Below are positions 24,010 through 48,235 of a DNA stretch of 64,000 nt, piece after piece. The stretch lies in the NCBI RefSeq assembly GCF_024502345.1, contig NZ_JALDNN010000001.1. One strand, 5' to 3'. This DNA comes from Escherichia coli. GTDB taxonomy: Bacteria > Pseudomonadota > Gammaproteobacteria > Enterobacterales > Enterobacteriaceae. Position 1 is the first letter of the stretch, and each line of letters begins with the position of its first letter. Under the pieces are notes generated by a model. That model did no database searches and had not been told where the DNA came from. It was given only the letters and a program-made list of their open reading frames with translations. A program made the position numbers and the translations under genes.

Positions 24010-25101
<1,092 letters not shown>

Positions 25102-25323
25102 CTATTGTGATCAAAAACAACAAATTAGTAACATTTAACGTAGGGTATTAAGGCAAAGTGAGACAGGAAATGAATAACTAAAGCAACAGGTTAGGGGGGA
25201 ATTACCATCAGAGAACAGATTATCTGGTCGATAAAAAACGGTAAATGGCTTCACTGCAAAATGACCGTCAGTAAACTAAACATATTATCTGCCCCGTTTT
25301 AGCGGGGCAGATATAACATTAAA

Positions 25324-27012
25324 TTACAAATAGAGATAGTTCAGCGGTTCTCCTGTTTTCCCTAAAAGAAGAGCGCTACGCCCAGGAATATTGATATTTA
25401 GAGTTCCGCCTCTAAGCATAAATGCTTTACCAGGGGGGATAATTTTTCGGGTATTATTAATAATAATGTTAACGCTATTACTCCCCATGTTTTTATATTT
25501 TCCAGGTTGCAATTTGTTAGGCCAGGCACCTTCAACTTCTTCGTTTCCTTTATTTATTATAACTAGTCCATCATGAGGAGAGTGATTAATGTTCACCGAA
25601 TCCCCACGACTAAAGGCCAGAACGTTTTTAGTTGCAAATACACCCTCAAATGCGCTCCATATTCCTGCTTTATCTATATATAATGCGTGGAATTCATTGT
25701 AGAGCTGCTGATAGGTAGAGCAACCTTTATTAAGCCACGCCTCACCGCCGACACGCGTCGACCCATCATAATTTTTAATTTCAGTCGTTGATTTTAATAC
25801 TTGGCCATCCCAGTAAACTAAAGGCCTGCTGAACGGGAGAGCGGCCATATATGCCATTGCTAATTGTTCATCTTGTTGATGGTTAAATAGAAAGTCATTG
25901 AAAAGATTGCCATTGTTAGGAAAAACGTGGTTAATGTTAATCAATATCCGTCTTTTTGATGGGATGCTTGAGATTGTTGAACCCGGTTTTGATGCAAGGG
26001 TTTGGAGATCGCCACCAAATGAAAAAGCTTTTATCGTCTTCATGAGCAATGAAAAATCAATGGCGCTTAAATCATCTCTTTCATAAAGCAGCGATGACAT
26101 TTGTTGTTCATCCAACTGACAAGTTACCAGATATTCCATGTAATTCATAACGGCTTTTTCATGATATTTTGGGTTAAATAAGTTAGTATTGTGTAATCGC
26201 TCATTATAATTTTTAAGCGGTGGGGTTATTGATCTTTCTATTTGTTCATGTTTTGAGTGTTTTGCCGCATCATAACGTAAACCTCGTACGCCATATTTTC
26301 GCATTTCACGAACGTATTGATTTTGCAGCATAATAACCTGGTCACTTTTGGGGGTTGTTTTAGGCATTCCATTTAAACGCTTTTCTTTTAATGCATGGAG
26401 GTTTTCCCATTCATCCTTAGAAATATTATCTTTACTTGCTTCGAAGTCTTTTGCAGTGAGATGTATATCTTCTGGATGGATTTGTTTACGTTCTTTTGTT
26501 ACTGGATCTATAGTAAATGGAATCAAAACCTGACCTTGCCAATAGCCAGGGATACCACCTTCTATATCTTTACTGATCTTCGCTCGTATATCAGCAGAGG
26601 GATAATCCAGGTCATTTTTACCACTACCCCCGATTCCCATAAAGTTAAAGGTATAATCAGGAATGATATCGATACCAAATTTTTTAGCATCTTTAACCAA
26701 TGCGATAAAATCCTGCAAATCTCCCATTGGATTATGGATGGTACAAAGATCTTCGGGTTGATAAGCGTGAAACCAGTAACCTTTTTCTTCTTCGGGAGTT
26801 TCTGGTCCGTCGGCGCGGAAAGTTGTCACTGGAGGGATTTGTATATACCCATAATGGCAACGTGCAAACTCAGACATATTTTCCCTGATTTGCTGGTAGG
26901 TGGCATTAAAAGCATGAAGAATCGCTTCGCCAGGTTTTTTGGGGGTGATGATTTCACATTGTGATTTCTGAACAGCAGTAAGGGATTTACGCTCAAGTGT
27001 TTGCCGTAGATG
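25324..27012 (-). pseudogene. ygaQ: YgaQ-like glycoside-hydrolase-family protein, N-terminally truncated by IS3
   Basis: 517 aa ORF (25324-26877) with no upstream partner; coding region abuts IS3 left end at 27013. Confidence 0.7.
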
Positions 27013-27068
27013 TGATCTTACCCAGCAATAGTGGACACGCGGCTAAGTGAGTAAACTCTCAGTCAGAG

Positions 27069-27377
27069 GTGACTCACATGACAAAAACAGTATCAACCAG
27101 TAAAAAACCCCGTAAACAGCATTCGCCTGAATTTCGCAGTGAAGCCCTGAAGCTTGCTGAACGCATCGGTGTTACTGCCGCAGCCCGTGAACTCAGCCTG
27201 TATGAATCACAGCTCTACAACTGGCGCAGTAAACAGCAAAATCAGCAGACGTCTTCTGAACGTGAACTGGAGATGTCTACCGAGATTGCACGTCTCAAAC
27301 GCCAGCTGGCAGAACGGGATGAAGAGCTGGCTATCCTCCAAAAGGCCGCGACATACTTCGCGAAGCGCCTGAAATGA
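27069..27377 (+). CDS. insE: IS3 transposase OrfA (InsE)
   Basis: ...[53 protein letters not shown]...; probable true start at the second Met. Confidence 0.9.
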
Positions 27378-28240
27378 AGTATGTCTTTATTGAAAAACAT
27401 CAGGCTGAGTTCAGCATCAAAGCAATGTGCCGCGTGCTCCGGGTGGCCCGCAGCGGCTGGTATACGTGGTGTCAGCGGCGGACAAGGATAAGCACGCGTC
27501 AGCAGTTCCGCCAACACTGCGACAGCGTTGTCCTCGCGGCTTTTACCCGGTCAAAACAGCGTTACGGTGCCCCACGCCTGACGGATGAACTGCGTGCTCA
27601 GGGTTACCCCTTTAACGTAAAAACCGTGGCGGCAAGCCTGCGCCGTCAGGGACTGAGGGCAAAGGCCTCCCGGAAGTTCAGCCCGGTCAGCTACCGCGCA
27701 CACGGCCTGCCTGTGTCAGAAAATCTGTTGGAGCAGGATTTTTACGCCAGTGGCCCGAACCAGAAGTGGGCAGGAGACATCACGTACTTACGTACAGATG
27801 AAGGCTGGCTGTATCTGGCAGTGGTCATTGACCTGTGGTCACGTGCCGTTATTGGCTGGTCAATGTCGCCACGCATGACGGCGCAACTGGCCTGCGATGC
27901 CCTGCAGATGGCGCTGTGGCGGCGTAAGAGGCCCCGGAACGTTATCGTTCACACGGACCGTGGAGGCCAGTACTGTTCAGCAGATTATCAGGCGCAACTG
28001 AAGCGGCATAATCTGCGTGGAAGTATGAGCGCAAAAGGTTGCTGCTACGATAATGCCTGCGTGGAAAGCTTCTTTCATTCGCTGAAAGTGGAATGTATCC
28101 ATGGAGAACACTTTATCAGCCGGGAAATAATGCGGGCAACGGTGTTTAATTATATCGAATGTGATTACAATCGGTGGCGGCGGCACAGTTGGTGTGGCGG
28201 CCTCAGTCCGGAACAATTTGAAAACCAGAACCTCGCTTAG
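27374..28240 (+). CDS. insF: IS3 transposase OrfB (InsF), DDE
   Basis: 288 aa [35 protein letters not shown]... Confidence 0.9.
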
Positions 28241-28324
28241 GCCTGTGTCCATATTACGTGGGTAGGATCATAATGCTTTGGTTGCTGGCGTATCTGACAG
28301 CTTCTTCGGCGTGAAGGTCGTTGT

Positions 28325-29381
28325 GGCTTTGTTGAATAAATCAGATTTCGGGTAAGTCTCCCCCGTAGCGGGTTGTGTTTTCAGGCAATACGCACGCTTT
28401 CAGGCATACCTGCTTTCGTCATTTTGTTCAGCGCTCGTACCAGGGCCATAGCCTCTGCAACCTGACCATCGTAGTCACGCAGTGTCAGTGAACCCCCGAA
28501 CAGCTGTTTTACCCGGTACATCGCCGTTTCCGCTATCGAGCGACGGTTGTAATCTGTTGTCCATTTCCACCGCGCATTACTCCCGGTCATTCGCTGATTA
28601 GCCACTGCACGGTTACGGTCTGCATATTCACCGGGCCAGTAACCCGCACCTTTTCGGGGAGGGATAAGCGCGCTGATTTTCTTACGCCGCAGTTCATCGT
28701 GACATAGCCGGGTATCGTAAGCGCCATCGGCGGCGGCTGACCTGATTTTCCGGTGGGTTTGCCGGATTAACCCGGGGAAGGCCTCTGAGTCCGTAACGTT
28801 GTTCAGCGACAGGTCAGCGCAGATGATTTCATGTGTTTTACTGTCAACGGCGAGATGCAGCTTACGCCAGATACGGCGGCGTTCCTGGCCATGCTTTTTG
28901 ACTTTCCACTCGCCTTCACCGAAGACCTTCAGCCCGGTGGAATCAATTACCAGGTGTGCGATTTCACCCCGGGTGGGCGTTTTGAAACTGACATTAACCG
29001 ACTTTGCCCGCCTGCTGACACAGCTGTAATCCGGGCAGCGTAGCGGAACGTTCATCAGAGAAAAAATGGAATCAATAAAGCCCTGCGCAGCGCGCAGGGT
29101 CAGCCTGAATACGCGTTTAATGACCAGCACAGTCGTGATGGCAAGGTCAGAATAGCGCTGAGGTCTGCCTCGTGAAGAAGGTGTTGCTGACTCATACCAG
29201 GCCTGAATAGCTTCATCATCCAGCCAGAAAGTTATGGAGCCACGGTTGATGAGGGCTTTATTGTAGGTGGGCCAGTTGGTGATTTTGAACTTTTGCTTTG
29301 CCACGGAACGGTCTGCGTTGTCGGGAAGATACGTGATCTGATCCTTCAACTCAGCAAAAGTTCGATTTATTCAACAAAGCC
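28325..29381 (-). mobile_element. IS903-family element, complete (1057 bp)
   Basis: 18-bp terminal inverted repeats GGCTTTGTTGAATAAATC at both ends; flanking 9-mers differ (GGTCGTTGT vs TGTCCCCAT). Confidence 0.93.
28381..29349 (-). CDS. IS903-family DDE transposase
   Basis: 322 aa track ORF; YREK-type signature (YNRRSIAETAMYRVKQ); true start may be an internal GTG. Confidence 0.9.
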   Translation of the reverse strand: MKDQITYLPDNADRSVAKQKFKITNWPTYNKALINRGSITFWLDDEAIQAWYESATPSSRGRPQRYSDLAITTVLVIKRVFRLTLRAAQGFIDSIFSLMNVPLRCPDYSCVSRRAKSVNVSFKTPTRGEIAHLVIDSTGLKVFGEGEWKVKKHGQERRRIWRKLHLAVDSKTHEIICADLSLNNVTDSEAFPGLIRQTHRKIRSAAADGAYDTRLCHDELRRKKISALIPPRKGAGYWPGEYADRNRAVANQRMTGSNARWKWTTDYNRRSIAETAMYRVKQLFGGSLTLRDYDGQVAEAMALVRALNKMTKAGMPESVRIA

Positions 29382-29480
29382 TGTCCCCATTTGTAAATGG
29401 CTATGCTTAGTCCACATAGGTTAATGGTGTGATTATTAATTCTTTAACTAAATCAAGATAGTTAATGCATCATGGGAGAG

Positions 29481-29900
29481 TTATGCGGCAATAACTTTGC
29501 ATTTTTGAGACGAAACATAGTCACTCCACCATTGCATGAGAACCACCCGTTCAGTGAGATACTCTGCACGATTGTAGGCTGCAATTATTTCATCTTTCTT
29601 CGAGTGGGCAAGGGCGGCTTCTAAGACATCAGTCCTAAACTTGCCAGACTCCTCAGCAGCCGTTCTAGCAATGGATCGCATACCGTGAGCTACAAGCTCA
29701 CCTCCGAAACCCATACGGATTATGGCCGCATTAGCTGTTTGTTCATGCATGTGATTGAGTGGAGCTTTGATACTGGGGAACACCCACTCTCTATGCCCGC
29801 TGATGACTTTCATTAAATCCAAAACTCGCAAAGCTTCTTTGCTCAGTGGAACTTTGTGAGGCTTCTTCATTTTCATAAACTCCGCCGGGATGTTCCACAT
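29481..29900 (-). pseudogene. Tyrosine integrase, 3' fragment (C-terminal ~139 aa)
   Basis: Aligns with the C-terminus of the intact integrase at 45621-46862 (...HGMRSIARTAA...ALAHSKKDEIIAAYNRAEYLTERVVLMQWWSDYV); no upstream integrase-coding sequence; AT-rich. Confidence 0.75.
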
Positions 29901-30062
29901 GCCAGTTTCAATATCAATAGCCGCCTTTCGACGGTGTAGTGGGGAGAGTATTGCTTACAAACGTAATGAAATTGTTTGAGTAGCTAGGCTACTGCATAGG
30001 ATTATTTTGTTCTGTTAATATATCCGTTAATATAGATAGATTGATCCAATTGAGTTTAAGGA

Positions 30063-31772
30063 ATGAGTATGTTTCAGATATCAGCTGGAGTGTTCTTTGA
30101 TTTAGATAAAATAGAAAAACACGATGGCGCATTTGTTTTTTATTCAAATGTTGATGTGTCTTTCTCGGTGGAAAACACCTCCCCTCTTTTTAAAGCAAAT
30201 AAAATAAGTCATGATGGTATAAACTGTTATGTGGTAAACTATACTCTCCTGACCGAAAAACCAGAACGAATTGAAGCTGGAGTCGTAGTTAGGGCTGGTG
30301 ATGAGGATTATAGGCAACAATTTATTTTATTATGGGAATTCTATTTTGATTGTGTGGCTAGAGTAGAAAAAGAATCGGTTAAAAAAATATGTGCATTATC
30401 AAATTTTAATAAACATCACTCAAAAATTGCGCTTGAAGTTGCCCCATATTTAGTGGAGATTAACCGAAGAGTTTCATTTGATGATGTCTCTGGGTTTTCT
30501 GCTTTTATTAAAGATGTAGTGAATCTAAATAGATCTGCCTTTAAATCTTTAATGGCAGCGTTAAAAATAATTAGTGATTCAAAAGAATCATTGTCAACCA
30601 ACTTTGACCTGACTTATTCCATGTTAGTCTATGCCTTGGAGTCTTTGTCTCAAAGAAATGATAACTATAAGTCTGATTGGGATGACTACGATCAAAAAAC
30701 CAGAGGTGAATTAGAGTCTGTATTTGAGCATATGCCTGGTGAGGATGTTTGTAAAATTAAATCAATACTTATTGAAGGCAAACAATTCAGATTACAAAAA
30801 AGGTTCAAAGATTTTATACTGAAAAATCTTGAAGAAAATTATTTCAATGAAACAGAGAGATATCCAATCCGCTATAGCTTCCTTAGTAGAGCTTTAGATA
30901 ATTTATACAAAATCAGGTCTTCTTTTGTCCATGAGCTTAAGCCACTTGATGCAATGATCTCGAAAGCCTACAATCCTGTTGGTGATTGTCTGGTTCTTTT
31001 TGGCGAACCTCACTTCAGTTACTCTGGATTGCTTCGACTTCTTCGCCATGTGATAATAAATTTTTGCCGTAAAAACTACAGTCAAAAAAGAGAGTATGTT
31101 AATTGGGTGATGGAAACATCGGGTGTAATGGTTGCAGAGATATCTGCACAATATTGGCTCTGGAATGCAGACGGATTTACAGCTAAAAGTATAGCGAAGT
31201 GGTTTAGTGAATACCTAAATATGTTAAATTTAGGCGAAGTCACTGATTTGCAGTCTATCATGGACAAAATTGAGATAATCTATGACCAATCCAAAAAAGA
31301 ATATAAAAATGGGTTGTTGTATTTTTATTTCTTATATAACTTAATGCATAATGGAAATAAGGGTGAATGGCTTGAGTTTGCGAACAAGCGAAGTTCTATA
31401 CTTGTTTGTGATATATATTGGTATTCATGCTCTCCATATTTATATAAATCATTTACTAATGTTTCAAATGGTATTGCTGATATAAAAACATTGAGAAACT
31501 TTTTGTCTTGTTTTAACGAATATGATAAAAATAAATTTAAGCCAAATCGTTTAAATCTCCCTGCAATGACCGAAGTAATTATGTTGGCTTGCGCAGCAAA
31601 TTCATTCTTCAGAATTGGAATGTATCAAGACTATGTTTTAATGGGCAATAGAGCGATGAGAGAAATTGCTTCAGTAAAAGATGTATTTTATTATATAAAA
31701 GAACGATTAAGTAATTCACAACTTATTGAATTGGACGAGTGCTTGAGATTGTATAGAAAAAAAGGGGGCTAA
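30063..31772 (+). CDS. Hypothetical protein, 569 aa, AT-rich, no family recognised
   Basis: Single long ORF with strong AT bias; GAGT-containing RBS-like sequence before the ATG; bracketed by integrase 3' remnants and inverted IS903 copies. Confidence 0.75.
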   Translation: MSMFQISAGVFFDLDKIEKHDGAFVFYSNVDVSFSVENTSPLFKANKISHDGINCYVVNYTLLTEKPERIEAGVVVRAGDEDYRQQFILLWEFYFDCVARVEKESVKKICALSNFNKHHSKIALEVAPYLVEINRRVSFDDVSGFSAFIKDVVNLNRSAFKSLMAALKIISDSKESLSTNFDLTYSMLVYALESLSQRNDNYKSDWDDYDQKTRGELESVFEHMPGEDVCKIKSILIEGKQFRLQKRFKDFILKNLEENYFNETERYPIRYSFLSRALDNLYKIRSSFVHELKPLDAMISKAYNPVGDCLVLFGEPHFSYSGLLRLLRHVIINFCRKNYSQKREYVNWVMETSGVMVAEISAQYWLWNADGFTAKSIAKWFSEYLNMLNLGEVTDLQSIMDKIEIIYDQSKKEYKNGLLYFYFLYNLMHNGNKGEWLEFANKRSSILVCDIYWYSCSPYLYKSFTNVSNGIADIKTLRNFLSCFNEYDKNKFKPNRLNLPAMTEVIMLACAANSFFRIGMYQDYVLMGNRAMREIASVKDVFYYIKERLSNSQLIELDECLRLYRKKGG

Positions 31773-31932
31773 CCCCTTTTATTTTTAACGTATTCTCCCC
31801 ACCAATCCATCAATTCAATTCGCTGCACGAGATAAGTAGAACGATTGTATGCTTTTCTAACTTCATTTTTATCACTGTGGGCTAAGGCAGACTCGATAAC
31901 ATCAGGATTTAATCCAGCTTCATTCATGGCTG
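31769..31932 (-). pseudogene. Tyrosine integrase, 3' remnant (~50 codons), truncated by IS903
   Basis: Reverse strand translates ...AMNEAGLNPDVIESALAHSDKNEVRKAYNRSTYLVQRIELMDWWGEYVKNKRG*; abuts IS903 end at 31933. Confidence 0.55.
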
Positions 31933-32673
31933 GGCTTTGTTGAATAAATCGAACTTTTGCTGAGTTGAAGGATCAGATCACGTATCTTCCCGACAACGCA
32001 GACCGTTCCGTGGCAAAGCAAAAGTTCAAAATCACCAACTGGCCCACCTACAATAAAGCCCTCATCAACCGTGGCTCCATAACTTTCTGGCTGGATGATG
32101 AAGCTATTCAGGCCTGGTATGAGTCAGCAACACCTTCTTCACGAGGCAGACCTCAGCGCTATTCTGACCTTGCCATCACGACTGTGCTGGTCATTAAACG
32201 CGTATTCAGGCTGACCCTGCGCGCTGCGCAGGGCTTTATTGATTCCATTTTTTCTCTGATGAACGTTCCGCTACGCTGCCCGGATTACAGCTGTGTCAGC
32301 AGGCGGGCAAAGTCGGTTAATGTCAGTTTCAAAACGCCCACCCGGGGTGAAATCGCACACCTGGTAATTGATTCCACCGGGCTGAAGGTCTTCGGTGAAG
32401 GCGAGTGGAAAGTCAAAAAGCATGGCCAGGAACGCCGCCGTATCTGGCGTAAGCTGCATCTCGCCGTTGACAGTAAAACACATGAAATCATCTGCGCTGA
32501 CCTGTCGCTGAACAACGTTACGGACTCAGAGGCCTTCCCCGGGTTAATCCGGCAAACCCACCGGAAAATCAGGTCAGCCGCCGCCGATGGCGCTTACGAT
32601 ACCCGGCTATGTCACGATGAACTGCGGCGTAAGAAAATCAGCGCGCTTATCCCTCCCCGAAAAGGTGCGGGTT
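31933..32673 (+). mobile_element. IS903-family element, truncated second copy (~741 bp), inverted relative to copy 1
   Basis: Starts with GGCTTTGTTGAATAAATCGAACTTTTGCTGAG; identical to copy 1 up to ...AAAGGTGCGGGTT, then diverges into the yfjP-like fragment. Confidence 0.9.
31965..32673 (+). pseudogene. IS903-family transposase, C-terminally truncated
   Basis: First ~236 codons identical to the copy-1 transposase; track ORF continues in unrelated out-of-frame sequence. Confidence 0.8.
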
Positions 32674-33094
32674 GCATCACACCGTTCCAGAACTGCTCGT
32701 CCACCGACAGCGCACGGTCATCAGCTTTGATGACCCACAGCACCAGGTCAAGCTCTGGCAGCATACGCCGGTACAGGGCGCGGTATTCATGGTCCCGTTG
32801 TCCGTTCTCTCCCACGCCCGGTAAATCAACAATCACCAGACTGTGACGACCACTGCGCAGCCGGAAGCGCAGTATGTCGCGGGTGCAGGCGTTCACATCA
32901 CTGACGGCGGAGACTTCCCCCCGAAAGAGTTCGTTACAGAGCGACGACTTACCGGCACCACTCTTGCCCATGATGCCAATCACCGGCTCGTAGTGGGTCA
33001 GATTCTGAATACGTTCAAGAATAAGCTGGCGAAGCGTATCGGGAAGCGACGCCAGCGGTTTTTCCAGGGCCTGAAGGCCATCAGTTTTATTCAT
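32674..33094 (-). pseudogene. yfjP: YfjP/YkfA/YeeP-family GTPase, N-terminal fragment
   Basis: MNKTDGLQALEKPLASLPDTLRQLILERIQNLTHYEPVIGIMGKSGAGKSSLCNELF... (P-loop GKSGAGKS); cut short at the IS903 junction. Confidence 0.75.
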
Positions 33095-33726
33095 ACAGGG
33101 TTCTCAGCGTGAAAAACAAAAATCCCCGCGCTCCGGTCAGGGAGGCGGGGGATTCACGGAGATAATATCTATCTGAATTTATTTAGAATATAAGCAGGCT
33201 CATGTAACTGTAGCAGTGTCAACTTTACATCACAGCTCATGTTGGCTGGTGGTATTTTGCCAATAGTAGACATTTACGCCTAGGTTTAGATATCGAAATT
33301 AGTACACCAATATAGATACAGCAAAGAGGGAACTGATTTGTCTGCGCGAGACTAGAACCGTTGCCCCCTGTGGTTCGATGGATTGCAGGAAAATCATTTC
33401 CGGTGCTGAAGAGAGCCTCCGATACAACCTGAGAATATTTTAAGAACATCAAAATGAATGACGTAATTTACTCAAAGGCGATTGCCTAATATGTCATGAT
33501 ATTAGTAGCATTTAATTGCGTGAAAGTTTGTATATTCTTTTGAATTTATCTCAAAGCTAAAACCTCGTCAAAAATACACAAAAGGGTTTTGAGAAACAAG
33601 AGCCTGATGCTGAATCTGCTACAGAGCTGGGTTCTGTTCTGTTAAACTTGCGGTTAAAAATTTCCAAGAAAACCTAGGATATGACATGAGTTCACTGCAC
33701 ACCAGTAGTAGCAGCAGGGCGGTCAC

Positions 33727-38582: not shown

Positions 38583-39753
38583 TTCTGATTTAGACGATTT
38601 GGCGGCAGAACTTGCTGAATTTGCACCACCGGAGAAGAAAAAAGGACGTCCAGCCAGCGAGGAACGCATCATCGCAGGTTTTGAGGAAATCCAGCGCTTC
38701 GCTGACCAACATGGACGTGCGCCGCAACACGGCGAAGAGCGTGAGATCTTTGAGCGCCTCTATGCAGTGCGGCTCGACCGGCTACGCAGTCTCCCAGACT
38801 GCCGTGCCTTGCTAGAGCCGCTGGATCATCAAGGCTTATTGGCTGGAGGGGGTGATGTAGCGGAGTCAGCGGACGAAATTATCGATATCGATAATTTGGC
38901 TGCCGAACTGACGGATGTTTCCAGCGAGGATGATATCACAGTCTTGCGTCATGTTCGTGCTAGCGCCGAAAAGCGTGCTGTACAAGGGATCGCGGATCGC
39001 AAGCCGTGCGAGGATTTTGATACATTCAAACCGCTATTTGAACAGGTGCGCAGTGATCTAAGTTCAGGGTTAAGAGTGACCCGACCTTTTGGACAGTATG
39101 CAACGATTGAAGTGGGCCATTGGTTCATCCTGGATGGTCAAACGGCTTATGTGGCTGAGGAAGGTGAAGAGTTCGATTCTCCACAGGGGAAGAAAGATGC
39201 TCGGCTGCGTGTCATTTATTCGAATGGTACAGAAAGTAACCTGCTTCGGCTGTCATTAGTTCGTGCTTTGTATAAAGACGAAACAGCACGTCGAATTACC
39301 GATCCAGACATGGGGCCTTTATTCAGCGATGCTCTAGAAGAGAGCGATCTAGAAAGTGGCACCATTTATGTATTGCGTTCGCTATCAGATAACCCTTATG
39401 TGGCCGAACATCGTGATGTTATTCACAAGATTGGTGTGACTGGCGGCAAGGTCGAGACTCGTATTGCTAATGCTGAACACGATTCCACCTATCTGTTGGC
39501 GAAGGTAGAGGTGGTCGCTTCATACAAACTCGCAGGTATCAACCGCACCCGGATGGAAAACCTGTTTCACAGGTTGTTTGCACCCGCAAGGCTTAACATT
39601 ACCATTAACGACCGTTTCGGCCATCCAGTACAGCCCGAGGAATGGTTTCTCGTTCCGTTATTCGTTATCGATGAGGCTGTTGCACGTATTAAGGATGGTA
39701 GCATCATTGGGTATGTTTATGACCCCATGTCTGCGAAACTGGTGAAGGCATAG
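38575..39753 (+). CDS. GIY-YIG-like / T5orf172-like domain protein, ~392 aa (tentative domain call)
   Basis: GGAGG RBS then ATG at 38575 overlapping helicase stop (ATGAGTAA); C-terminal region GTIYVLRS...YVAEHRDVIHKIGVTGGKVETRIAN resembles GIY...YIG-R; acidic N-terminus. Confidence 0.65.
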   Translation: MSNSDLDDLAAELAEFAPPEKKKGRPASEERIIAGFEEIQRFADQHGRAPQHGEEREIFERLYAVRLDRLRSLPDCRALLEPLDHQGLLAGGGDVAESADEIIDIDNLAAELTDVSSEDDITVLRHVRASAEKRAVQGIADRKPCEDFDTFKPLFEQVRSDLSSGLRVTRPFGQYATIEVGHWFILDGQTAYVAEEGEEFDSPQGKKDARLRVIYSNGTESNLLRLSLVRALYKDETARRITDPDMGPLFSDALEESDLESGTIYVLRSLSDNPYVAEHRDVIHKIGVTGGKVETRIANAEHDSTYLLAKVEVVASYKLAGINRTRMENLFHRLFAPARLNITINDRFGHPVQPEEWFLVPLFVIDEAVARIKDGSIIGYVYDPMSAKLVKA

Positions 39754-39868
39754 TGAAGTGACACACTGAATTTGGCCACCTGTTCTGAGGTGAGTATATC
39801 ACCTCAGAACAGCACAGGAATAAAAGATACTGATTTGAATGTACCTATACTTTGCGATGTGAGGATCA

Positions 39869-40660
39869 ATGAATAGTAACCTGACCAAGATATGTTACCG
39901 TGGTGAGACTGGTGAAAGTGATCTAAGAACGTTGATACTTGGTGAGATTCTATATATCTCACTACGAGATGTTTTAATCACGCTGAATAAAGAAAATAGA
40001 GAAATCAACGCTGATTACACAGTAAAATCGATGGCTGGAATAATCAGGGCGCAATTACAGGCTCTTGACCCTGATGAGTATATTACTACAGATGCTGAAA
40101 ATGGTGTTTTTGAAGGTCAGAAAGAGATCTTCGTCACCCAGCCAGGTTTGTATCGAGTCATGTCAAGTGACCGAAGCGCTGCCGGTAAGCGCTTTCAAAA
40201 ATGGTTATTTCATGAAGTCATACCATCATTGACTAAGCATGGTGTATACCCGCCTCCGCCAGAAGCGAAAGGTTCAGCCCTTGCACAAATGGCTGAGATA
40301 CTTGCTCAAAATTCGCGAGCACTTGCTGACGCAATCCATAAACACGAAAAACTGGCCGAAGATGTCTCACAGGTTAAAGGTAAAGTTGCCAACGTTGAAA
40401 GCCGTCTGGAACTGTTAGAATCAGGTCCTTCCACTGTAACTGAAGATATGCATACTCTTGATAGCCGTCTCGCTTATTTGGACATGAGCATGGAAGAAAA
40501 GCATACCACCGAGACATTAGCCTGGTGCGAGAATATTTCTGTTCAAAATAACAGGAAGGTGATTCGCAAGGACTGTAGGGAGAATTCGCTCTTTACAACG
40601 CAGACTATCGACGAAGCAATCGCTATCATGACTGAAAGTGGAAAAATCACACCAAATTGA
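39869..40660 (+). CDS. Bro-N domain protein (phage antirepressor-like), 263 aa
   Basis: ...GLYRVMSSDRSAAGKRFQKWLFHEVIPSLTKHG matches the Bro-N/Ant hallmark (F..W...EV.PSI); coiled-coil-like C-terminal half. Confidence 0.7.
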   Translation: MNSNLTKICYRGETGESDLRTLILGEILYISLRDVLITLNKENREINADYTVKSMAGIIRAQLQALDPDEYITTDAENGVFEGQKEIFVTQPGLYRVMSSDRSAAGKRFQKWLFHEVIPSLTKHGVYPPPPEAKGSALAQMAEILAQNSRALADAIHKHEKLAEDVSQVKGKVANVESRLELLESGPSTVTEDMHTLDSRLAYLDMSMEEKHTTETLAWCENISVQNNRKVIRKDCRENSLFTTQTIDEAIAIMTESGKITPN

Positions 40661-40748
40661 AGATCCTGGGGTTCAGATTATCTGCTGGCTATCTTATTGA
40701 GCTCTGACGTAAAATAGGCCTTCCCACAAAGAGAAGGCCATTGCCGAC

Positions 40749-41375
40749 TTACAGATCGATTTGGCTACAGCCGAAGTTACGGTCTCCTTCACCAAACACT
40801 TTGCTTTCGACTTTGGTGAGGTAATCCAGTCGGGTTAACAGCGCTTGGTAGTTATGCTGGAAGTCAGCATTATTGGTATCCAGCACGTACTTACAGTTGT
40901 CAGGAAAATGGACCAGACCAGGGTGATCATCCAGTTTCAGTCCCAGGGCGCTGTACCACGCTCCCGTAATCATCCCTCTCAGGTTATCGTGCTGATCGTA
41001 ATCCCCGAGGTGGTAGTAAGCGTCTTTGTTGAACAACAGGCAAATGTGGTAGTGGCATTTACCTGACTCAGAATACTCTTTCGCCCATATAATAAATAAA
41101 GGGCAACGGTAGATGCGTTTACCTTCACGCTCCTTACGGGTACGGTCAGCCTCCAGTTTAGCTCTGAGGGAATCACGCATTCGGGATATCACCCCTGGTT
41201 CAAGATTAGGGAAACAGCAGATATTGTCTCCGTTATCGACTATCTTCGGATAATGCAGATCGACACGTACCGCCGTTAACCTGGGGTAACGGTTAGTCAA
41301 ATAACATAATAATTTTTTAATCTTGATCTGATATTCGAGGATATGTACTCCATGAGTACCTTGATATGTTTTCAT
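40749..41375 (-). CDS. YagK/YfjJ-family protein (inovirus Gp2-like)
   Basis: 208 aa ORF with Cys/His-rich stretch (CHYHICLLFNKDAYYH); family assignment from memory of CP4-57/CP4-6 yfjJ/yagK. Confidence 0.6.
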   Translation of the reverse strand: MKTYQGTHGVHILEYQIKIKKLLCYLTNRYPRLTAVRVDLHYPKIVDNGDNICCFPNLEPGVISRMRDSLRAKLEADRTRKEREGKRIYRCPLFIIWAKEYSESGKCHYHICLLFNKDAYYHLGDYDQHDNLRGMITGAWYSALGLKLDDHPGLVHFPDNCKYVLDTNNADFQHNYQALLTRLDYLTKVESKVFGEGDRNFGCSQIDL

Positions 41376-41646
41376 AATATATATCTGTATTTGGTCCTAC
41401 GGTCTATAGCAGACCGTACAGGGATGCCATACAGGCAGGGCTATTCCTGGTCACTGTTGTCGGTATATACTGGTATCAGATCTTAGTACGGATATACTGA
41501 TCTGATTACTACTCTTACTGGTGAATACAGGTAGTAAGAGTACACAATGCCATTATATAATACCTATCCAACATCTAAATTTGAGACGAAGGTAGCCCCA
41601 GCCTGTGATGGCTGTTAAAAAGTTACTCTGCAATTAGCTTCTGGAA

Positions 41647-42216
41647 TTAACCGATGATTCCGTTATTCCAGTGCCGCTTCACAGTCGATAAACTGATACT
41701 CAATTTCTTTGCAATCTCAGCCTGAGTAAATCCACCTTTCTTAAGTATTGTGATATCACGTCGGTATTTGCTTCCCTCCTTTCGTCCTAATTTCTTCTTA
41801 ACATGTCGATATCGGCTTTTAGTTGATTTCAGATTGTGAATGTCAATCGTATCCTGACGAGCAATCAAAAAAGACAAGCAACTTTCAGCAGAAGGCTCTA
41901 TCCTTGAAGCTGGATGGTAGCTGTAGATAAAAATTTCTTTTTGAAGGCAAAAAAATAAAATATTCTGTAAGTCCTCCACAGTTCTGCCAAGACAGCTTAG
42001 ATCTGGAATGACAAGCGTGTCCTGCCGGTTCATTTCATGATGAATCAATTGTCTGAGTAAACGTTGCTCTGAAACAACCTCTTTAATATCTACCTGCTCG
42101 ATCACAACATGTTCAGGTAGAATATTAAATTTTTGGCATATCTCAGCAAGTGAGTGATGATCTGTAATGCTTTCTTGCTGTTCGCTACTGCATATGGTGT
42201 AAAAAAATGAACGCAT
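41647..42216 (-). CDS. Serine recombinase-like protein (resolvase/invertase fold), possibly catalytically altered
   Basis: From internal Met: MRSFFYTICSSEQQ (cf. YARVSTxxQ), LVIPDLSCLGRTVEDL (cf. DRLGR), C-terminal HTH GFTQAEIAKKLSISLSTVKRH. Track ORF extends to 42345. Confidence 0.6.
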   Translation of the reverse strand: MRSFFYTICSSEQQESITDHHSLAEICQKFNILPEHVVIEQVDIKEVVSEQRLLRQLIHHEMNRQDTLVIPDLSCLGRTVEDLQNILFFCLQKEIFIYSYHPASRIEPSAESCLSFLIARQDTIDIHNLKSTKSRYRHVKKKLGRKEGSKYRRDITILKKGGFTQAEIAKKLSISLSTVKRHWNNGIIG

Positions 42217-42371
42217 CTGATGCACTCCGGTGTCATAAATTATTCTTTGATACCTGAACAATGTCATTTTGTATAAAAAATAACCAAAAATAGAGCGTGA
42301 TTGCCAGCGATACTTTGAGTGGTAAAGTAGTATTTTACCTCTCATAATTGTTTGTCCTTCTTTGTTACCTC

Positions 42372-43085
42372 TTAGGTTCTGCTCTCCTGTGAGTATGGGT
42401 TTATAATGATGTCATCCGGTGCATTAACACGGTTGGAAACATTTGTTTTACGGATCACTGGCAGCATAACCACCATCTCATTGACATGGTAAATATCAAT
42501 CCAACAAACAACCGGATAAGGCATAACAATCCCCTTTCTTCTAAGAACTTCATTTATCCCGAATATAATTAATTGGGATGTTGACAAGAGTAGAGTCTGC
42601 CCGACATCAAAGTAATAATCCTCAAAGGTTGTTCTATGAATAAGAATAATGTTTGAATATCCCAAGACACTTTGATGCTTTACATTAAAATGTCGTTGAT
42701 TGTAAATGTAAATGGCTTTTTCCATATCGTAATTTTCCCTCAGCGAGGATAGCCTTTCACGTATAACTGTTTTTTCATCTTTCCCCATGAATTCATCATT
42801 AGCGTTCAGTTTAAAGTAATCTGTAATTGGGATTTTTAATGGACTCATGATGTTCGTTTTCCAGATTAACGAACAGTATTCTTCCAGAGTCACTTCTTTT
42901 TCACCTCGATTTCGAATAATTCTTTCATTTATAGTGAATCTTAGTAGATCGTTTTTTAGCTCCTTTATTAGCCATTGATAGCGAAGACATTGCTCGAATA
43001 TATGTACCGTCAACGCCACAGAGTCTGATATGACTGAGGAAAGAGATTTATTATTCATCCTGGCATAATGCTCAAGAGTTTCCAT
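42372..43085 (-). CDS. Hypothetical protein, 237 aa, AT-rich
   Basis: Long ORF with no recognised motifs; between resolvase-like gene and alpA. Confidence 0.55.
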   Translation of the reverse strand: METLEHYARMNNKSLSSVISDSVALTVHIFEQCLRYQWLIKELKNDLLRFTINERIIRNRGEKEVTLEEYCSLIWKTNIMSPLKIPITDYFKLNANDEFMGKDEKTVIRERLSSLRENYDMEKAIYIYNQRHFNVKHQSVLGYSNIILIHRTTFEDYYFDVGQTLLLSTSQLIIFGINEVLRRKGIVMPYPVVCWIDIYHVNEMVVMLPVIRKTNVSNRVNAPDDIIINPYSQESRT

Positions 43086-43245
43086 CTCAGATTCATTTTT
43101 GTGCGTAAAAGTGTATTTTTTATTGGAAATGTTTTTTACTCCTTATAATTAACATTGCTATTAATTAATCCTGTTTGTAAAGGAGAAGTTTATTAATAAG
43201 TAAAAGTCCGCCTGCATCAAGACACGATGAAAATGTCTTCCTTTC

Positions 43246-43458
43246 TTACTCTATTGCCCGGGTTCGTTGTAAAATCCATTCGTCTATTTCAGCCTCTATC
43301 CAGCCGACAGATTGCAGCCCCAGACGACGTTGTTTCGGGAACGTTGGGTCATAGCGTGGCGATTTCGGATTGATCCAGTCATAGATTGTTGAACGTGACA
43401 AGCCCGTTTTGTCAATTACTGTAGAAAGACGAAGTATTTTAACATTAGATTTGTTCAT
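43246..43458 (-). CDS. alpA: AlpA-family prophage regulatory protein (excisionase-like HTH)
   Basis: 70 aa: MNKSNVKILRLSTVIDKTGLSRSTIYDWINPKSPRYDPTFPKQRRLGLQSVGWIEAEIDEWI, characteristic AlpA sequence. Confidence 0.85.
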   Translation of the reverse strand: MNKSNVKILRLSTVIDKTGLSRSTIYDWINPKSPRYDPTFPKQRRLGLQSVGWIEAEIDEWILQRTRAIE

Positions 43459-43649
43459 AGCTGATTACCTCAAATCGAAGTGCTCTGGATGATGTGAGAT
43501 TAGCTTTAAGGCAGCCAATCTAAAATGTATGTGCCAAAAAAACTTTTTTTTACGAACGGGAAATAAATATCCTATTGAAATTTAATGATTTTATTTTTTT
43601 TCTGTCGGGTCCATCAGAACGGTGTGAATTCAGTTACAGCCTTCCGGTC

Positions 43650-44570
43650 CGGTAATGGGCCAGTTATATGTTGAGTGGCTGCGCTTCGATGACTTCTGTT
43701 TCAGTGGGCTGGTCTATCTCCGACGTGCTGTGGCAGGTAGCGGTTCAGCAGTAGCCATTATTCGTTCTGCTCCGTCAGTACCGCACCCAGCAGCCGCAAG
43801 ATGCTCTCTTCATTGGGAAGATACCTACCACTGTCAACGCCAAGATTGTTGGCCGTTTCGTCCGCATCCCCTATTGGTCATTAATGTTGTCCGCTTTCCG
43901 CCGTTTCATCTCTTTGTTCAGGCGCTCCAGCGTGTTTGTGGAGTGGGTTTTTCACTTGGTGTGCTTTCGGGAGGCCGAAGGACGCCAGCACGTCTGCCTC
44001 TGCTTCGTCCATCACCCCGGTGACCGCCGGGTTGCTTTTCTCCCATTGACCGGCAACCTTGCACAGGTGGCATGGGCGCTTTTCTCGTCGGTCTGCACGA
44101 ACACCTGTTGCAGCGCCGCACGGACCACCGACTGGTTTGCACGGCTGACGCGGCTCAGCACGTTGCGCATGAAGTGGACCCGGCAGCGCTGCCAGCTGGC
44201 GGAGAACATCTGCCTATCGCCGCCTTCAGGCTCAGCAGGAAGGTCAGCCAGGATGCCGTTTATCCATGCTTCCTGGATAACCGCGTTGAGCGCCTTCTCA
44301 GACAATCTGTGGGCCTCCAGGAAGGGCGGGAAGTACGTCCCTTTAAGCAGCTTCGGAATACGCAGGTCCACAGCGTGCCGAGCTGGCGGGGACTGACGGT
44401 CACGATAGCCGTTGTGGTAGGTTTCGCGCTCATCGCTGCGCTAGTGGGCTCCGCGTTGATGTGCTGAGTGACATCTGCTTCCATAATGCAGTTGAGCATA
44501 AATTCGGTGAGTTCACGCAGAAAATCCTCGCCGCCGAGTAGCATCAGGGTGTTGCTGAATGTCATGCTGT
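43650..44570 (-). pseudogene. IS256-family (mutator-type) transposase, frameshifted remnant
   Basis: Reverse-strand ORF pieces ...LRELTEFMLNCIMEADVTQHINAEP..., ...RLSEKALNAVIQEAWINGI..., ...VHFMRNVLSRVSRANQS... resemble IS256-family blocks in different frames; GC-rich. Confidence 0.55.
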
Positions 44571-44784
44571 TGTCATTCCGAATTTACACCACGCCCTAAG
44601 ACTCTACCTTATTTTCTTTGCAAAGCAGGCTGCTTGTGCAAGTTGTACATGTAGTTAACAGGCAGTAAGTATGGCAAACCATTATTTCATGTCTTCACAT
44701 CTGGTTCTTCATTCAGTTAAGTAGTAAAAATGAAAGGGATGTCAGAGCAAGAACAGATGACGTTGTGTAACTGACCAATGAAGG

Positions 44785-45558
44785 ATGATATGGAATATGC
44801 TTGATATTTTTTGCTCGGAATTTGAAGAAAAAAGAAACAAATTAAAGACCTACCTTGAAAGCTCGGGATTTCTTTATAGGCATTCTATCATCAAAAAAAT
44901 GTCTCTTTTGGATGGTATGGATGAAAGCCAGAATTTTGAGTTGTTGCAGGCGAAACAATATAATCGTGATGATATACAATGCTGGGAGTATATTAGCTCT
45001 AAGTGGACCGTCGTTCCTATTATGATGGGTTCGCAAAGCCTTAAACACTTTTTTACATGGAATTTTAAGGCCGCTGGGATATTTCAGCGATATGGAAAGG
45101 ATATGTGGGATATCAACAAGATAATTGCAGTTAAATCTTTATTGTTTGCTAGTTCAGTCTTAGGTAGTTGCCTTGGGGTTGCAGGCTATGGCCCGTTGCT
45201 GCCTTCGGAGCTTGCATTAGACAAAAAGAAGCTAACTAAGAAAAAACAGTCAGCAAGAATGGGAGGGATATCTAAGGCTGAATTATATCTCCCGATAAAA
45301 GAAGAGACGATAAGATTGCTCCACCAAAATGTTCCTGTGGATGGTAGATGGAAAAATAAAACGGTTGCAGCAAAGGCAATAGAGGCAGATTTAGTCATCT
45401 TTGTACAAAATTTGAAATCTCAAAACCAAAATCTGGATCTTAATGAAGAAGATATTATTACAGTCGTCAAACGTTGGGAACGCAATGATGAAAGAGTAAA
45501 GGCTGCATTTGAGGGAACGGTGAAGCAAAAAATCTCTGGCAAGAAGGGCTCGGGTTAG
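44785..45558 (+). CDS. Hypothetical protein, 257 aa, AT-rich, integrase-proximal
   Basis: Long ORF with no recognised motifs; AAGGA RBS favours the second ATG (44797); convergent with integrase. Confidence 0.65.
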   Translation: MIWNMLDIFCSEFEEKRNKLKTYLESSGFLYRHSIIKKMSLLDGMDESQNFELLQAKQYNRDDIQCWEYISSKWTVVPIMMGSQSLKHFFTWNFKAAGIFQRYGKDMWDINKIIAVKSLLFASSVLGSCLGVAGYGPLLPSELALDKKKLTKKKQSARMGGISKAELYLPIKEETIRLLHQNVPVDGRWKNKTVAAKAIEADLVIFVQNLKSQNQNLDLNEEDIITVVKRWERNDERVKAAFEGTVKQKISGKKGSG

Positions 45559-45587
45559 AACTTCTCATTATTTTTTCCAAAAATAAG

Positions 45588-45612
45588 AACCGCGCCTTTG
45601 AAGGCGCGGATT
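45588..45612 (-). terminator. Probable intrinsic terminator downstream of the integrase gene
   Basis: Hairpin CCGCGCCTT-TGAA-AAGGCGCGG followed (reverse strand) by a T-rich run. Confidence 0.5.
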
Positions 45613-45620
45613 AAGTAGAA

Positions 45621-46862
45621 TCAAACAACAAGTTTTAATGCACCGGCACTAGATTCTACCATGCTTCCTTTATCTGCTCTTTTAACAAAATCAGCCCACC
45701 ATTGCATCATCGGCCTACGTTGCTCAAGATAATCACTGCGGTTATAAGCGCGACGTACCTCATTTTTGTCTACATGAGCAAGTGCGGCTTCAATGACATC
45801 AGGAGGAAATCCTTGCTCATTGAGGGCTGTACTGGCGATAGAACGCAAACCATGTGAAACCAGCACTCCCCCTAAACCGGCACGCTTGAGTGCAGCATTC
45901 ACGGTTTGACTGTTCATCGGCTGAGTGGGCTTAATGCGGCTTGGAAAAATAAAATCTCGGCCACCACTGAGCGGCTTCATCATTTCCAGAATAGCCAGAG
46001 CCCCATCAGATAATGGAACGGTATGGTCCCGGTTCATTTTCATTCGGGCTGCTGGAATTTTCCATTCGTTAGCATCAAAATCGATCTCATTCCACCGAGC
46101 TTCTGCGGCTTCTGCGGGGCGGGTGATGGTGAGAAGTTGCCACATGAACAGACACCGCGTAGACAGGCTGATACTGGCCGTACGCATAGTTTGCATCAAC
46201 TGAGGCAACTGATCCGGACGAATACTGGGCATGTTCTTTTTCTGAGGTTTCTCGAAGGCTTTGCCAATATTAACACTGGGAACTGCATCAATCAGGCCCG
46301 TGTTTTGGGCATAAATCATGACTTCATTGATCCGTTGGCAAAGACGGCGGACAGTTTCCAGTGCTCCTCGGGCCTGAACGGGTTGAACGGCTTGAACCAG
46401 TGTATGGGCTTTAATATCTGTAACGCTTACGTTGCCAATTGCGGGAAATATATCTCTTTCAAGCGAACGCCAGATATCATCAGCATAGTCCTCGGTTACA
46501 CTGGCTTTCTTCACATTCCACCAACGCTCGGCAACTAACAAGAAAGTGTTGGTTTTGGCCTCCTGAGAATTTCTTATCTGTTCTTTTTGGTATTCCTGAG
46601 GATCGATTCCTTTTGCCAGTAATACTTTGGATTCAGCTCTGAGCTTACGAGCATCGGAAAGCGAGACAGCAGGATAGGAACCGAAGCTCTGTTTAGTTCG
46701 CTGTTTTGTCAGAGGTCGGTAATAACGGAATTGCCAGAGCTTACTGCCACTGGATTTGATTAGCAGCGTCAGTCCGTCACCATCATACAACTGATAATCG
46801 GCATCTTTAGATTTGGCTGCTTTGATTTCCGTATCCGTTAACGGCTTGGTTTTTCTTGCCAC
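45621..46862 (-). CDS. intA: P4/CP4-57-type tyrosine integrase (IntA-like)
   Basis: 413 aa: MARKTKPLTDTEIKAAKSKDADYQLYDGDGLTLLIKSSGSKLWQFRYY...; C-terminal catalytic region HGLRSIASTA...AHVDKNEVRRAYNRSDY; adjacent to ssrA 3' end. Confidence 0.93.
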   Translation of the reverse strand: MARKTKPLTDTEIKAAKSKDADYQLYDGDGLTLLIKSSGSKLWQFRYYRPLTKQRTKQSFGSYPAVSLSDARKLRAESKVLLAKGIDPQEYQKEQIRNSQEAKTNTFLLVAERWWNVKKASVTEDYADDIWRSLERDIFPAIGNVSVTDIKAHTLVQAVQPVQARGALETVRRLCQRINEVMIYAQNTGLIDAVPSVNIGKAFEKPQKKNMPSIRPDQLPQLMQTMRTASISLSTRCLFMWQLLTITRPAEAAEARWNEIDFDANEWKIPAARMKMNRDHTVPLSDGALAILEMMKPLSGGRDFIFPSRIKPTQPMNSQTVNAALKRAGLGGVLVSHGLRSIASTALNEQGFPPDVIEAALAHVDKNEVRRAYNRSDYLEQRRPMMQWWADFVKRADKGSMVESSAGALKLVV

Positions 46863-47044
46863 GGTGGAGTCTCCATGCTTTTAGGCCCAACAAAGACCAT
46901 AGATCTTTTCGTTGGGCCTATCAATGGGCCTAAAACAATTAGCTTAGGTAGGATCAAATCAGATAGCGCTGGACATAAAAAAGCCCGTAAGTCGTTGTGA
47001 CTACGGGTTTTTTGGTTTTTCTTGGATTGCTTTGGAATAAAATT

Positions 47045-47407
47045 TGGTGGAGCTGGCGGGAGTTGAACCCGCGTCCGAAATTCCTACATCCTCGGTACTA
47101 CATGCTTAGTCAGTCTTTACATTCGCTTGCCAGCTGCGGACGGACACGCCACTAACAAACTAGCCTGATTAAGTTTTAACGCTTCAACCCCAGGCAGGGC
47201 TTCCACGCGATCTCTTTTGGGTTTGACCTCTCTTGATCCCCGTCCTAAGAGCGGAGGCTAGGGAGAGAGGGCTCTAAGCAGGTTATTAAGCTGCTAAAGC
47301 GTAGTTTTCGTCGTTTGCGACTATTTTTTGCGGCTTTTTACGAGGCCAACCGCCCCTCGGCATGCACCTTGGGTTTCGCAAATCCCGTCGAATCCAGAAT
47401 CAGCCCC
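47045..47407 (-). ncRNA. ssrA: tmRNA (SsrA), 363 nt
   Basis: Reverse complement begins GGGGCTGATTCTGGATTCGACGGG and ends GGTTCAACTCCCGCCAGCTCCACCA; terminator-like hairpin follows at ~46975-47015. Confidence 0.97.
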
Positions 47408-48104: not shown

Positions 48105-48235
48105 AAGCGTCGTGAATCATCGGTAATCTGAAATCGAAAACACCCCATATCAATCCTGCGGGGGACAAGGCTCTATCTTAGCATGAACCCGATGTTACCC
48201 AGCGCCGGGATAGCGTTTTTTTTACAGCAGGATAA

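Follow-up and report, generated by a model that had tools for sequence, protein, structure and literature searches.

How many mobile elements lie beside the transfer-messenger RNA (tmRNA) gene ssrA of an Escherichia coli strain, and can the integrase next to that gene still move any of them? We addressed this question in a 64,000-nt stretch of E. coli assembly GCF_024502345.1 (contig NZ_JALDNN010000001.1), hereafter the window, in which a sequence-only reading had placed a single mosaic island at positions 25324-47044, with an intact P4-type integrase, a CP4-57-like backbone and replaced cargo. Our comparisons indicate that 27013-47044 is probably a decayed tandem array of three ssrA-integrated elements, each with its own P4-family integrase. 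We refer to them as elements A, B and C, in order of increasing distance from ssrA.

This reading is carried by three integrase genes or gene fragments, each of which matches an integrase lying directly beside ssrA in another genome (K-12, ATCC 8739 and FT130, respectively). The first (45621-46862, minus strand) encodes an IntA-type (P4-family) tyrosine integrase of 413 amino acids, intact as the sequence-only reading had recognized, that starts 182 bp from the 3′ end of ssrA and matches NCBIfam PRK09692 over its full length (residues 1-412, 900.6 bits). It shares 92.2% amino acid identity with K-12 IntA, 98.8% with the integrase of strain 2013C-4282, and 60% with the P4-like satellite integrase of ATCC 8739. 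The second is represented by the last 164 bp of a satellite integrase gene (31769-31932, minus strand), which belongs to element B, a 2-kb fragment of a P4-like satellite (29916-31932, plus strand) that consists of the gene of the psu-int hotspot and this integrase 3′ end. Element B shares 99.75% identity with the segment that separates psu from int in the P4-like satellite found at ssrA in ATCC 8739 (NC_010468). The third, in element C (29382-29919, minus strand), is the 3′ end of another ssrA-specific integrase gene. Its open reading frame (ORF; 29481-29900) encodes residues 271-409, which align with positions 267-395 of PRK09692 and are identical to the integrase beside ssrA in E. coli FT130 (100% amino acid and 99.8% nucleotide identity). 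All of the pieces keep the orientation relative to ssrA that is seen in the reference genomes.

A short additional piece of element C was found further from ssrA. Approximately 55 bp at 28271-28324 are 100% identical to FT130 positions 18020-18074, which in that strain lie downstream of the ParB genes of its island. This leftover adjoins a copy of the insertion sequence (IS) IS3 (1258 bp; 27013-28270, plus strand), recognized by its NCBIfam IS3 transposase and 99.6% identical to the IS3 that lies between ileY and the island in FT130. Together, the IS3 and the 28271-28324 piece are collinear with the FT130 order of integrase, cargo, IS3, ileY and ygaQ, with deletions: the recombinase gene and the two ParB genes that make up the FT130 cargo have been deleted here, as has the DNA on both sides of IS3.

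The limits of the foreign DNA were set by comparison with other E. coli chromosomes. On the right, the ssrA gene is intact (47045-47407, minus strand; ARAGORN, and Rfam RF00023 at 295.8 bits) and the ssrA-smpB region is 99.6% identical to that of K-12. Integration was targeted to the 3′ end of ssrA at 47045, which forms the left attachment site (attL) of the array. The spacer between this end and the integrase start (46863-47044), read directly in the sequence, makes up the island side of attL and is collinear with both 2013C-4282 and strain KCJ3K291. On the left, a 7-kb block (19975-27013) is collinear with K-12 gabT-gabD-lhgD-glaH-ygaQ at 96.4% identity, and also with ATCC 8739 and FT130. 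The segment 25324-27012 is therefore not island DNA but chromosomal flank, consisting of the 5′-truncated ygaQ alpha-amylase-like pseudogene (minus strand; ORF 25324-26877) that is cut at 27013 by IS3, and the earlier left limit at 25324 had taken in about 1.7 kb of it. From this collinearity, the foreign DNA is the 20 kb between ygaQ and ssrA, 27013-47044, with IS3 at its left limit. At the ygaQ/IS3 junction, the ygaQ 5′ end has lost 563 bp and ileY is absent. In K-12, ATCC 8739 and FT130, ileY, a tRNA-Ile gene, sits between ygaQ and the ssrA islands, and ARAGORN found no tRNA gene in the 64-kb window; ileY and the 563 bp of ygaQ were probably lost here in an IS3-adjacent deletion. The strain would accordingly depend on any other copy of that tRNA for AUA decoding.

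The direct repeat of the ssrA 3′ end by which the sequence-only reading had proposed to define attL and the right attachment site (attR) was sought in the window, and there is no second copy. A 26-mer from the ssrA 3′ end, searched with up to 3 mismatches, occurs once in the 64 kb, in ssrA itself. A position-by-position search with an 18-mer, allowing up to 3 errors including indels, likewise gave no second copy in the window; the same test recovered its positive controls, namely psaA of K-12 and the attR beside ypjA in 2013C-4282 and KCJ3K291. The array thus keeps attL only. Of what the Islander definition of an island names, an intact tmRNA gene and a tyrosine integrase are found, and the displaced gene fragment is not. 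Since there is no attR, integrase-mediated excision is not expected, and the array would be fixed in the chromosome with ssrA locked in its intact form. This differs from K-12 CP4-57, which has retained its attR (psaA) and is able to excise when AlpA is induced: overexpression of AlpA in K-12 drives an IntA-dependent excision of CP4-57 that inactivates tmRNA (PMC10107115). The tmRNA-inactivating excision switch of K-12 would not be available at the locus studied here.

Of the three, element A (32670-47044) is the best preserved. It is a CP4-type island with its integrase next to ssrA, truncated at the other end in a GTPase gene. Reading away from ssrA, it contains the integrase gene, a YfjH-like gene, an IS256 remnant, alpA, yagM, yagL, yagK, a Bro-N gene, an IS911-like scar, a three-gene operon and the truncated GTPase gene. 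The last of these (32670-33094, minus strand) retains the N-terminal 142 codons of a YfjP/YkfA-family GTPase and is cut by IS903B. The predicted product shares 99.3% amino acid identity with residues 1-142 of the 291-residue GTPase of 2013C-4282 and 65% with YfjP. Nucleotide homology with the related islands begins at 32670, and the GTPase remnant is the distal end of what survives of element A. The integrase-proximal module and the cargo slot of the CP4-type architecture are thus present, with the integrase, alpA, yagK and the GTPase N-terminus in order. The distal CP4-type module (DUF932, antirestriction, RadC, toxin-antitoxin and DUF4942 genes), which is present in KCJ3K291, 2013C-4282 and UMNF18, is absent from the 64-kb window.

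Relatives were searched for by megablast in 5,426 complete E. coli genomes. None of them covers at least 80% of the whole range, and matches to insertion sequences dominated the result, so that the searches were made piecewise. The integrase-proximal 7.2 kb are covered to at least 80% in 6 genomes, and the operon has matches in 98 genomes, 87 of which reach at least 80% coverage. The closest relative is the island of KCJ3K291 (NZ_CP054407), which corresponds to element A at 99.9% identity over 32670-39818 and 99.4% over 40712-47077; that of 2013C-4282 (NZ_CP027579) corresponds to it at 96-98%. Both share the integrase, the YfjH-like gene, alpA, yagMLK, the operon and the GTPase gene with element A. 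They have also retained the distal half (WYL, Ivy, DUF932, antirestriction, RadC, CbtA/YeeU and DUF4942 genes) and an attR next to ypjA, and they carry other IS insertions. A full-length element A with both attachment site fragments exists in these two strains. To a large extent, element A proved to be a known and already annotated element with the same integrase-proximal gene content (99.4-100% identity in KCJ3K291, 96-98% in 2013C-4282), an outcome that the sequence-only reading had named as the one that would speak against it. KCJ3K291 differs in lacking the Bro-N gene and in having a lambdoid prophage between its ssrA and its island. Next to the integrase of that prophage are genes for a Dam-like methylase and an AAA ATPase (1225088-1227800 in KCJ3K291), which may be a moron-type defence pair.

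The likeness of element A to CP4-57 is one of architecture. The two share the ssrA target, an orthologous integrase (92% amino acid, 86% nucleotide identity) and an AlpA with 71% amino acid identity, and the CP4-57 order of integrase, alpA, YfjJ-family gene, defence cargo and GTPase is matched here. The earlier description of a CP4-57-like backbone was borne out to this extent, including its alpA and its yfjP-like remnant. At the nucleotide level, however, only intA (86%) gives a good match; alpA, yfjJ and yfjP match weakly by blastn (67-77%), and abpAB, rnlAB and yfjQ to ypjF have no blastn match here. Moreover, the yagKLM module is of CP4-6 type: 40712-43127 matches yagK-yagL-yagM of that element at 93.3% nucleotide identity, and the homology ends at 43127. 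CP4-6 itself lies at thrW with the integrase IntF, which is 23% identical over a local alignment, and only the 2.4-kb yagKLM module is common to both. The gene taken earlier for a yfjJ-like gene of CP4-57 is a member of the YfjJ family but the orthologue of yagK, and the resolvase-like gene is real but is the orthologue of CP4-6 yagL rather than a CP4-57 gene. The claim that the cargo is unlike that of K-12 held: the slot that contains abpAB and rnlAB in K-12 CP4-57 is occupied here by the Bro-N gene and a methyltransferase-helicase-T5orf172 operon.

Elements B and C are much further reduced. When the core genes of a P4-like satellite (psu, delta, sid, alpha primase and int) were looked for by comparison with ATCC 8739, only the hotspot gene and the 164 bp of int matched; nothing is left of psu, delta, the primase or the remainder of the satellite. 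We accordingly regard element B, from its gene content, as a remnant and not a satellite. In element C, the cargo has been replaced by a complete IS903B (1057 bp; 28325-29381, minus strand; IS5-family transposase at 357 bits, with terminal inverted repeats). The sequences on its two sides map to FT130 positions 18074 and 21636, which leaves 3.6 kb of the FT130-type island missing. A second, partial IS903B (741 bp; 31933-32673, plus strand) is inverted relative to the complete copy, 100% complementary to part of it over 741 nt, and likewise matches the NCBIfam IS5-family transposase; at its inner end it runs directly into the GTPase gene. The name IS903B follows the annotation of other genomes by the Prokaryotic Genome Annotation Pipeline (PGAP). 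The complete IS903B has no target-site duplication, as its flanks (GGTCGTTGT and TGTCCCCAT) differ, and IS3 lacks the 3-bp duplication, being flanked by ATG and TAA. This lack of duplications for both IS903B and IS3 is as expected after IS-associated deletions. Queries of 200 bp across the junction of elements B and C (29916-29919) and across the IS903B-GTPase junction (32673/32674) were matched in none of the 5,426 complete E. coli genomes, and an exact 36-mer at the B-C junction had no match in the GTDB representative genomes. From these searches the deletion junctions appear to be private to this strain.

A history of successive insertion followed by loss would connect the observed gene identities, collinearity, junctions and missing attR. 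Element C would have arrived first, then B and then A, the newest lying next to ssrA; this order is supported by the prophage of KCJ3K291, an instance of tandem occupancy in which the newer element lies next to ssrA. Insertions of IS903B and IS3, followed by deletions, would then have eroded the array. Such deletions would have removed the distal half of element A (WYL, DUF932, antirestriction, RadC and CbtA/YeeU toxin-antitoxin genes). They would also have taken every internal and terminal attachment site fragment, the greater part of elements B and C, ileY and the ygaQ 5′ end.

Three other explanations were weighed against such an array. The view of one mosaic island, running from the integrase to about 25324 on a CP4-57 backbone with cargo exchanged by recombination and still potentially mobile, can point to the integrase, alpA, YfjJ-family gene and YfjP-family GTPase in CP4-57 order, with cargo unlike that of K-12 between the last two. 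However, the region from 27013 to 32673 is made up of IS3, the IS903B copies and fragments of two other ssrA elements, so that the range includes two further integrase fragments; K-12 collinearity resumes at 27013, which leaves 25324-27012 to ygaQ; the GTPase gene breaks off after codon 142, and nothing remains of the distal half known from KCJ3K291 and 2013C-4282; and the locus has no attR and a yagKLM module of CP4-6 type. We consider a single, potentially mobile island very improbable. A joining error in the assembly, in which contigs were misjoined through the repeated IS3 and IS903B, seems equally remote. Four of the five unusual junctions do abut insertion sequences that are repeated many times in E. 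coli genomes, and the arrangement occurs in no complete genome, yet the B-C junction involves no repeat, the flanking chromosome has the order and orientation that would be expected on either side, and a local FT130-like ancestor would have left exactly the pieces that flank each IS.

Somewhat less remote, though still unlikely, is an IS903B composite transposon at 28325-32673, which would have gathered its fragments elsewhere and moved into the GTPase gene of a solitary element A, with no tandem array at all. The two inverted IS903B copies, 100% identical over 741 bp, do bracket a 2.55-kb segment. Against this, one of the copies is incomplete and target duplications are lacking; the 55-bp piece and the IS3, which lie beyond the bracket, are likewise of FT130 type and stand in FT130 order next to ygaQ; all fragments are oriented as for integration in situ at ssrA; and the segment occurs nowhere else as a unit, its parts being found on chromosomes only and never on plasmids. 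The tandem array is the reading that we prefer, and several points weigh against it in turn. No internal attachment site fragment survives, and tandem integration is deduced from gene identity and orientation. The B-C and IS903B-GTPase junctions and the overall arrangement have no independent copy among the 5,426 genomes. One IS903B is truncated at an internal point, which a simple IS-mediated adjacent deletion does not explain. As regards the cargo, described below, the operon was classed by its domain families, gene order and motif loss, and the defence activity of operons of this type is contested in the literature (PMC9973331).

The methyltransferase-helicase operon (33751-39753) and the Bro-N gene (39869-40660) that the sequence-only reading had described in the cargo slot are both present. 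The first gene of the operon (33751-36540, plus strand) encodes an MmeI-family N6-adenine DNA methyltransferase of 929 amino acids with a fused target-recognition domain, of the DnmA/YeeA type. All five Pfam domains of the family were found (MmeI_N, MmeI_hel, MmeI_Mtase, MmeI_TRD and MmeI_C), the protein matches the PADLOC model REase_MTase_IIG PDLC03598 over its full length (E=3.9e-284), and the methyltransferase motifs DPACGSG and NPPY are intact. A phmmer comparison with the MmeI structure 5HR4 (E=4.4e-138) gave an alignment that begins at query residue 96, equivalent to MmeI residue 108. The D-x9-ExK motif, that is, the PD-ExK triad D70/E80/K82 of MmeI, is not present in the N-terminus of the protein. 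In a MAFFT alignment with the PDB-verified MmeI N-terminus, E80 is kept while D70 is replaced by Q and K82 by G; this alignment is only 25% identical, so the exact equivalence of residues is uncertain. We take the nuclease triad to be absent because the equivalents of D70 and K82 are lost. BREX, DISARM and MADS were also considered for this gene and rejected, as its partial matches to PglX, DrmMI and mad2 fall far short, in strength, of the full-length MmeI/Type IIG match, and partner genes are lacking.

The ATG of the second gene (36537-38582, plus strand) overlaps the methyltransferase stop codon by 4 bp (ATGA). Its product is a YeeB-like superfamily-2 DEAD/DExH helicase of 681 amino acids (Pfam DEAD and ResIII, residues 28-196) in which motifs I (GKS), II (DEFH), III (TGS) and VI (QIIGRATR) can be read. 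The third gene (38575-39753, plus strand) overlaps the helicase stop by 8 bp, is preceded by a Shine-Dalgarno sequence (GGAGGG), and encodes a YeeC-like protein of 392 amino acids that belongs to the T5orf172/GIY-YIG superfamily and is a putative nuclease. The C-terminus of this protein matches Pfam T5orf172 (E=1.3e-10) and MUG113 (E=8e-13), and its amino acid sequence is 98% identical to a protein of 2013C-4282 annotated by PGAP as 'GIY-YIG nuclease family protein'. In PADLOC, the helicase gave only weak PbeA matches and the T5orf172 protein gave no match.

A comparable arrangement has been described before. Morgan et al. (2009; PMC2731913) distinguished a 'second group' of MmeI homologues that have no endonuclease motif, are unlike MmeI over the initial 100 residues, and in every case have a DEAD helicase and a GIY-YIG protein for neighbours, as in YeeA-YeeB-YeeC of Bacillus subtilis; the conservation of the dnmA-yeeB-yeeC gene order was also reported by Fernandez et al. 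(2023; PMC9973331). The E. coli operon has the same composition, with an MmeI-like methyltransferase lacking D-ExK followed by a DEAD helicase and then a GIY-YIG/T5orf172 protein. By domain families, gene order and motif loss, it is assigned to the known DnmA/YeeA-YeeB-YeeC type. It differs from the DnmA-YeeB-YeeC clusters in its setting, being an E. coli version that occupies the cargo slot of a CP4-type island. In B. subtilis, dnmA-yeeB-yeeC gave no phage protection, whereas mutants in the homologue of Vibrio crassostreae were phage-sensitive, as cited by the same authors (PMC9973331).

The three genes form a translationally coupled, restriction-like system with a putative defence activity. 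As judged from the literature, the methyltransferase with its fused recognition domain would read a target site and mark host DNA; having no nuclease motif of its own, it would recruit the helicase and the T5orf172/GIY-YIG protein, and these would cleave DNA that lacks the mark. The recognition domain (approximately residues 600-800; window positions 35500-36150) is only 28-50% identical to that of the homologue in UMNF18, whereas the rest is 98-100% identical, which implies that the two proteins recognize different sequences. Such swapping of specificity is typical of restriction systems under selection.

The second intact cargo gene of interest is the hotspot gene of element B, ORF569 (30063-31772, plus strand), which encodes a 569-residue protein 99.6% identical to its ATCC 8739 counterpart and is GC-poor (0.33). 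The psu-int hotspot of P4 has been described as a reservoir of defence systems, including uncharacterised HEPN proteins (Rousset et al., 2022; PMC9122126). Homologues of ORF569 occur in Enterobacteriaceae and Vibrionaceae, all of them annotated as hypothetical. In 29 homologues of 18-87% identity, an R283-x4-H288 motif is invariant (R283, S284 and H288). PADLOC returned a weak match to ApeA; no match was found in Pfam, NCBIfam, PHROGs or a PDB sequence search, and the AlphaFold model, although confident (predicted local distance difference test, pLDDT, 84), had no informative neighbour in the PDB. A HEPN-type abortive-infection function for ORF569 is plausible, though no more than that.

A stronger claim would be that selection has kept both the operon and ORF569 as working defence genes. 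ORF569 would then be a single-gene, HEPN-type abortive-infection system that was domesticated after the loss of its satellite, and the operon would work as a helicase-dependent restriction system whose target recognition resembles that of MmeI. We regard this as possible but put it forward tentatively, and on balance with some doubt. If true, the locus would hold an example of helicase-dependent, MmeI-like restriction, the mechanism of which was never worked out biochemically.

The remaining genes of element A are as follows. The Bro-N gene (plus strand) encodes a 263-residue protein whose domain matches Pfam PF02498 over model positions 3-96 of 96 (E=2.6e-6) and PHROG anti-repressor families. 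Between it and the operon lies a solo IS911-like terminal remnant, a 65-bp scar (39754-39818) with 83% identity to an end of K-12 IS911A. Collinearity with KCJ3K291 breaks exactly at 39818, where an IS-rich insert of 20 kb replaces the Bro-N gene in that strain. The yagK orthologue (40749-41375, minus strand) encodes a 208-residue protein of the YagK/YfjJ or 'inovirus Gp2' family that matches PHROG 25019 over its full length and has 92.8% amino acid identity to K-12 YagK as against 43.8% to YfjJ. The adjacent yagL orthologue (41647-42345, minus strand; 232 amino acids, 97.0% identical to K-12 YagL) has a resolvase-like catalytic domain and a helix-turn-helix, with weak matches to serine recombinases and sigma region 4. 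The yagM orthologue (42372-43085, minus strand) is without its first 47 codons, and its product is 82.7% identical to residues 48-284 of K-12 YagM; the truncated gene is likely a pseudogene, and yagM is flagged as incomplete in 2013C-4282 and KCJ3K291 as well.

Closer to the integrase, alpA (43246-43458, minus strand) encodes a 70-residue AlpA-like helix-turn-helix regulator or excisionase that matches both excisionase and transcriptional-regulator families in PHROG and shares 70.6% amino acid identity with K-12 AlpA. It is followed by the decayed remnant of an IS256-family transposase gene (43655-44565), which consists of overlapping short ORFs on both strands. Positions 43899-44229 are 86% identical to part of an IS256-family transposase pseudogene of 2013C-4282; that strain has a longer, frameshifted copy at this site, and in KCJ3K291 a frameshifted, incomplete transposase is annotated. 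The slot between alpA and the integrase is filled by a gene for a hypothetical protein of 257 amino acids (44785-45558, plus strand), a distant homologue of K-12 YfjH (29% amino acid identity over 201 residues) that belongs to PHROG 19089 (function not assigned) and matched no Pfam family.

Some further features of the chromosomal flanks were noted. The gabT-ygaQ block (19975-27013) is only 96.3-96.9% identical to K-12, ATCC 8739 and FT130, while for the segments 12231-19685 and 47045-64000 the identity to FT130 and ATCC 8739 reaches 98.3-99.2%. Such a difference suggests that the block is a recombined or more divergent segment adjoining the hotspot. Three tandem copies of the repetitive extragenic palindromic (REP)-type naRNA4 (Rfam RF02564) lie between gabP and gabT (19645-19901, minus strand), a site with a single copy in FT130, and a further naRNA4 copy was found at 4141-4218 (minus strand). 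A small break in collinearity with 2013C-4282 occurs between grpE and yfjD (52872-52939); the DUF6630 gene of that strain is absent from the window.

The idea that ssrA is a variable defence locus agrees with our comparison, in which six genomes had six different occupants at this site, and was already in the literature: the tmRNA locus is E. coli defence hotspot #9, where prophages, P4-like satellites, integrative mobilizable elements (IMEs) and transposons are found (Hochhauser et al., 2023; PMC10121019). Among the targets of islands, the tmRNA gene is the most enriched, and tandem arrays are recognized (Islander; PMC4383910). With element A and the hotspot both known, only the deletion junctions appear to be private to the strain studied here. 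The YeeABC-type operon and ORF569 are reasonable, though not novel, candidates for phage defence. For annotation, the locus illustrates that finding an integrase beside a tRNA or tmRNA gene is not enough to define one island, and that ygaQ is not to be counted as island DNA. Taken as a whole, the array would be a worked example, of little wider import, of how the tmRNA hotspot gathers one layer of elements after another and is then worn down by IS activity, a process that would leave behind an intact-looking integrase unable to excise its island.

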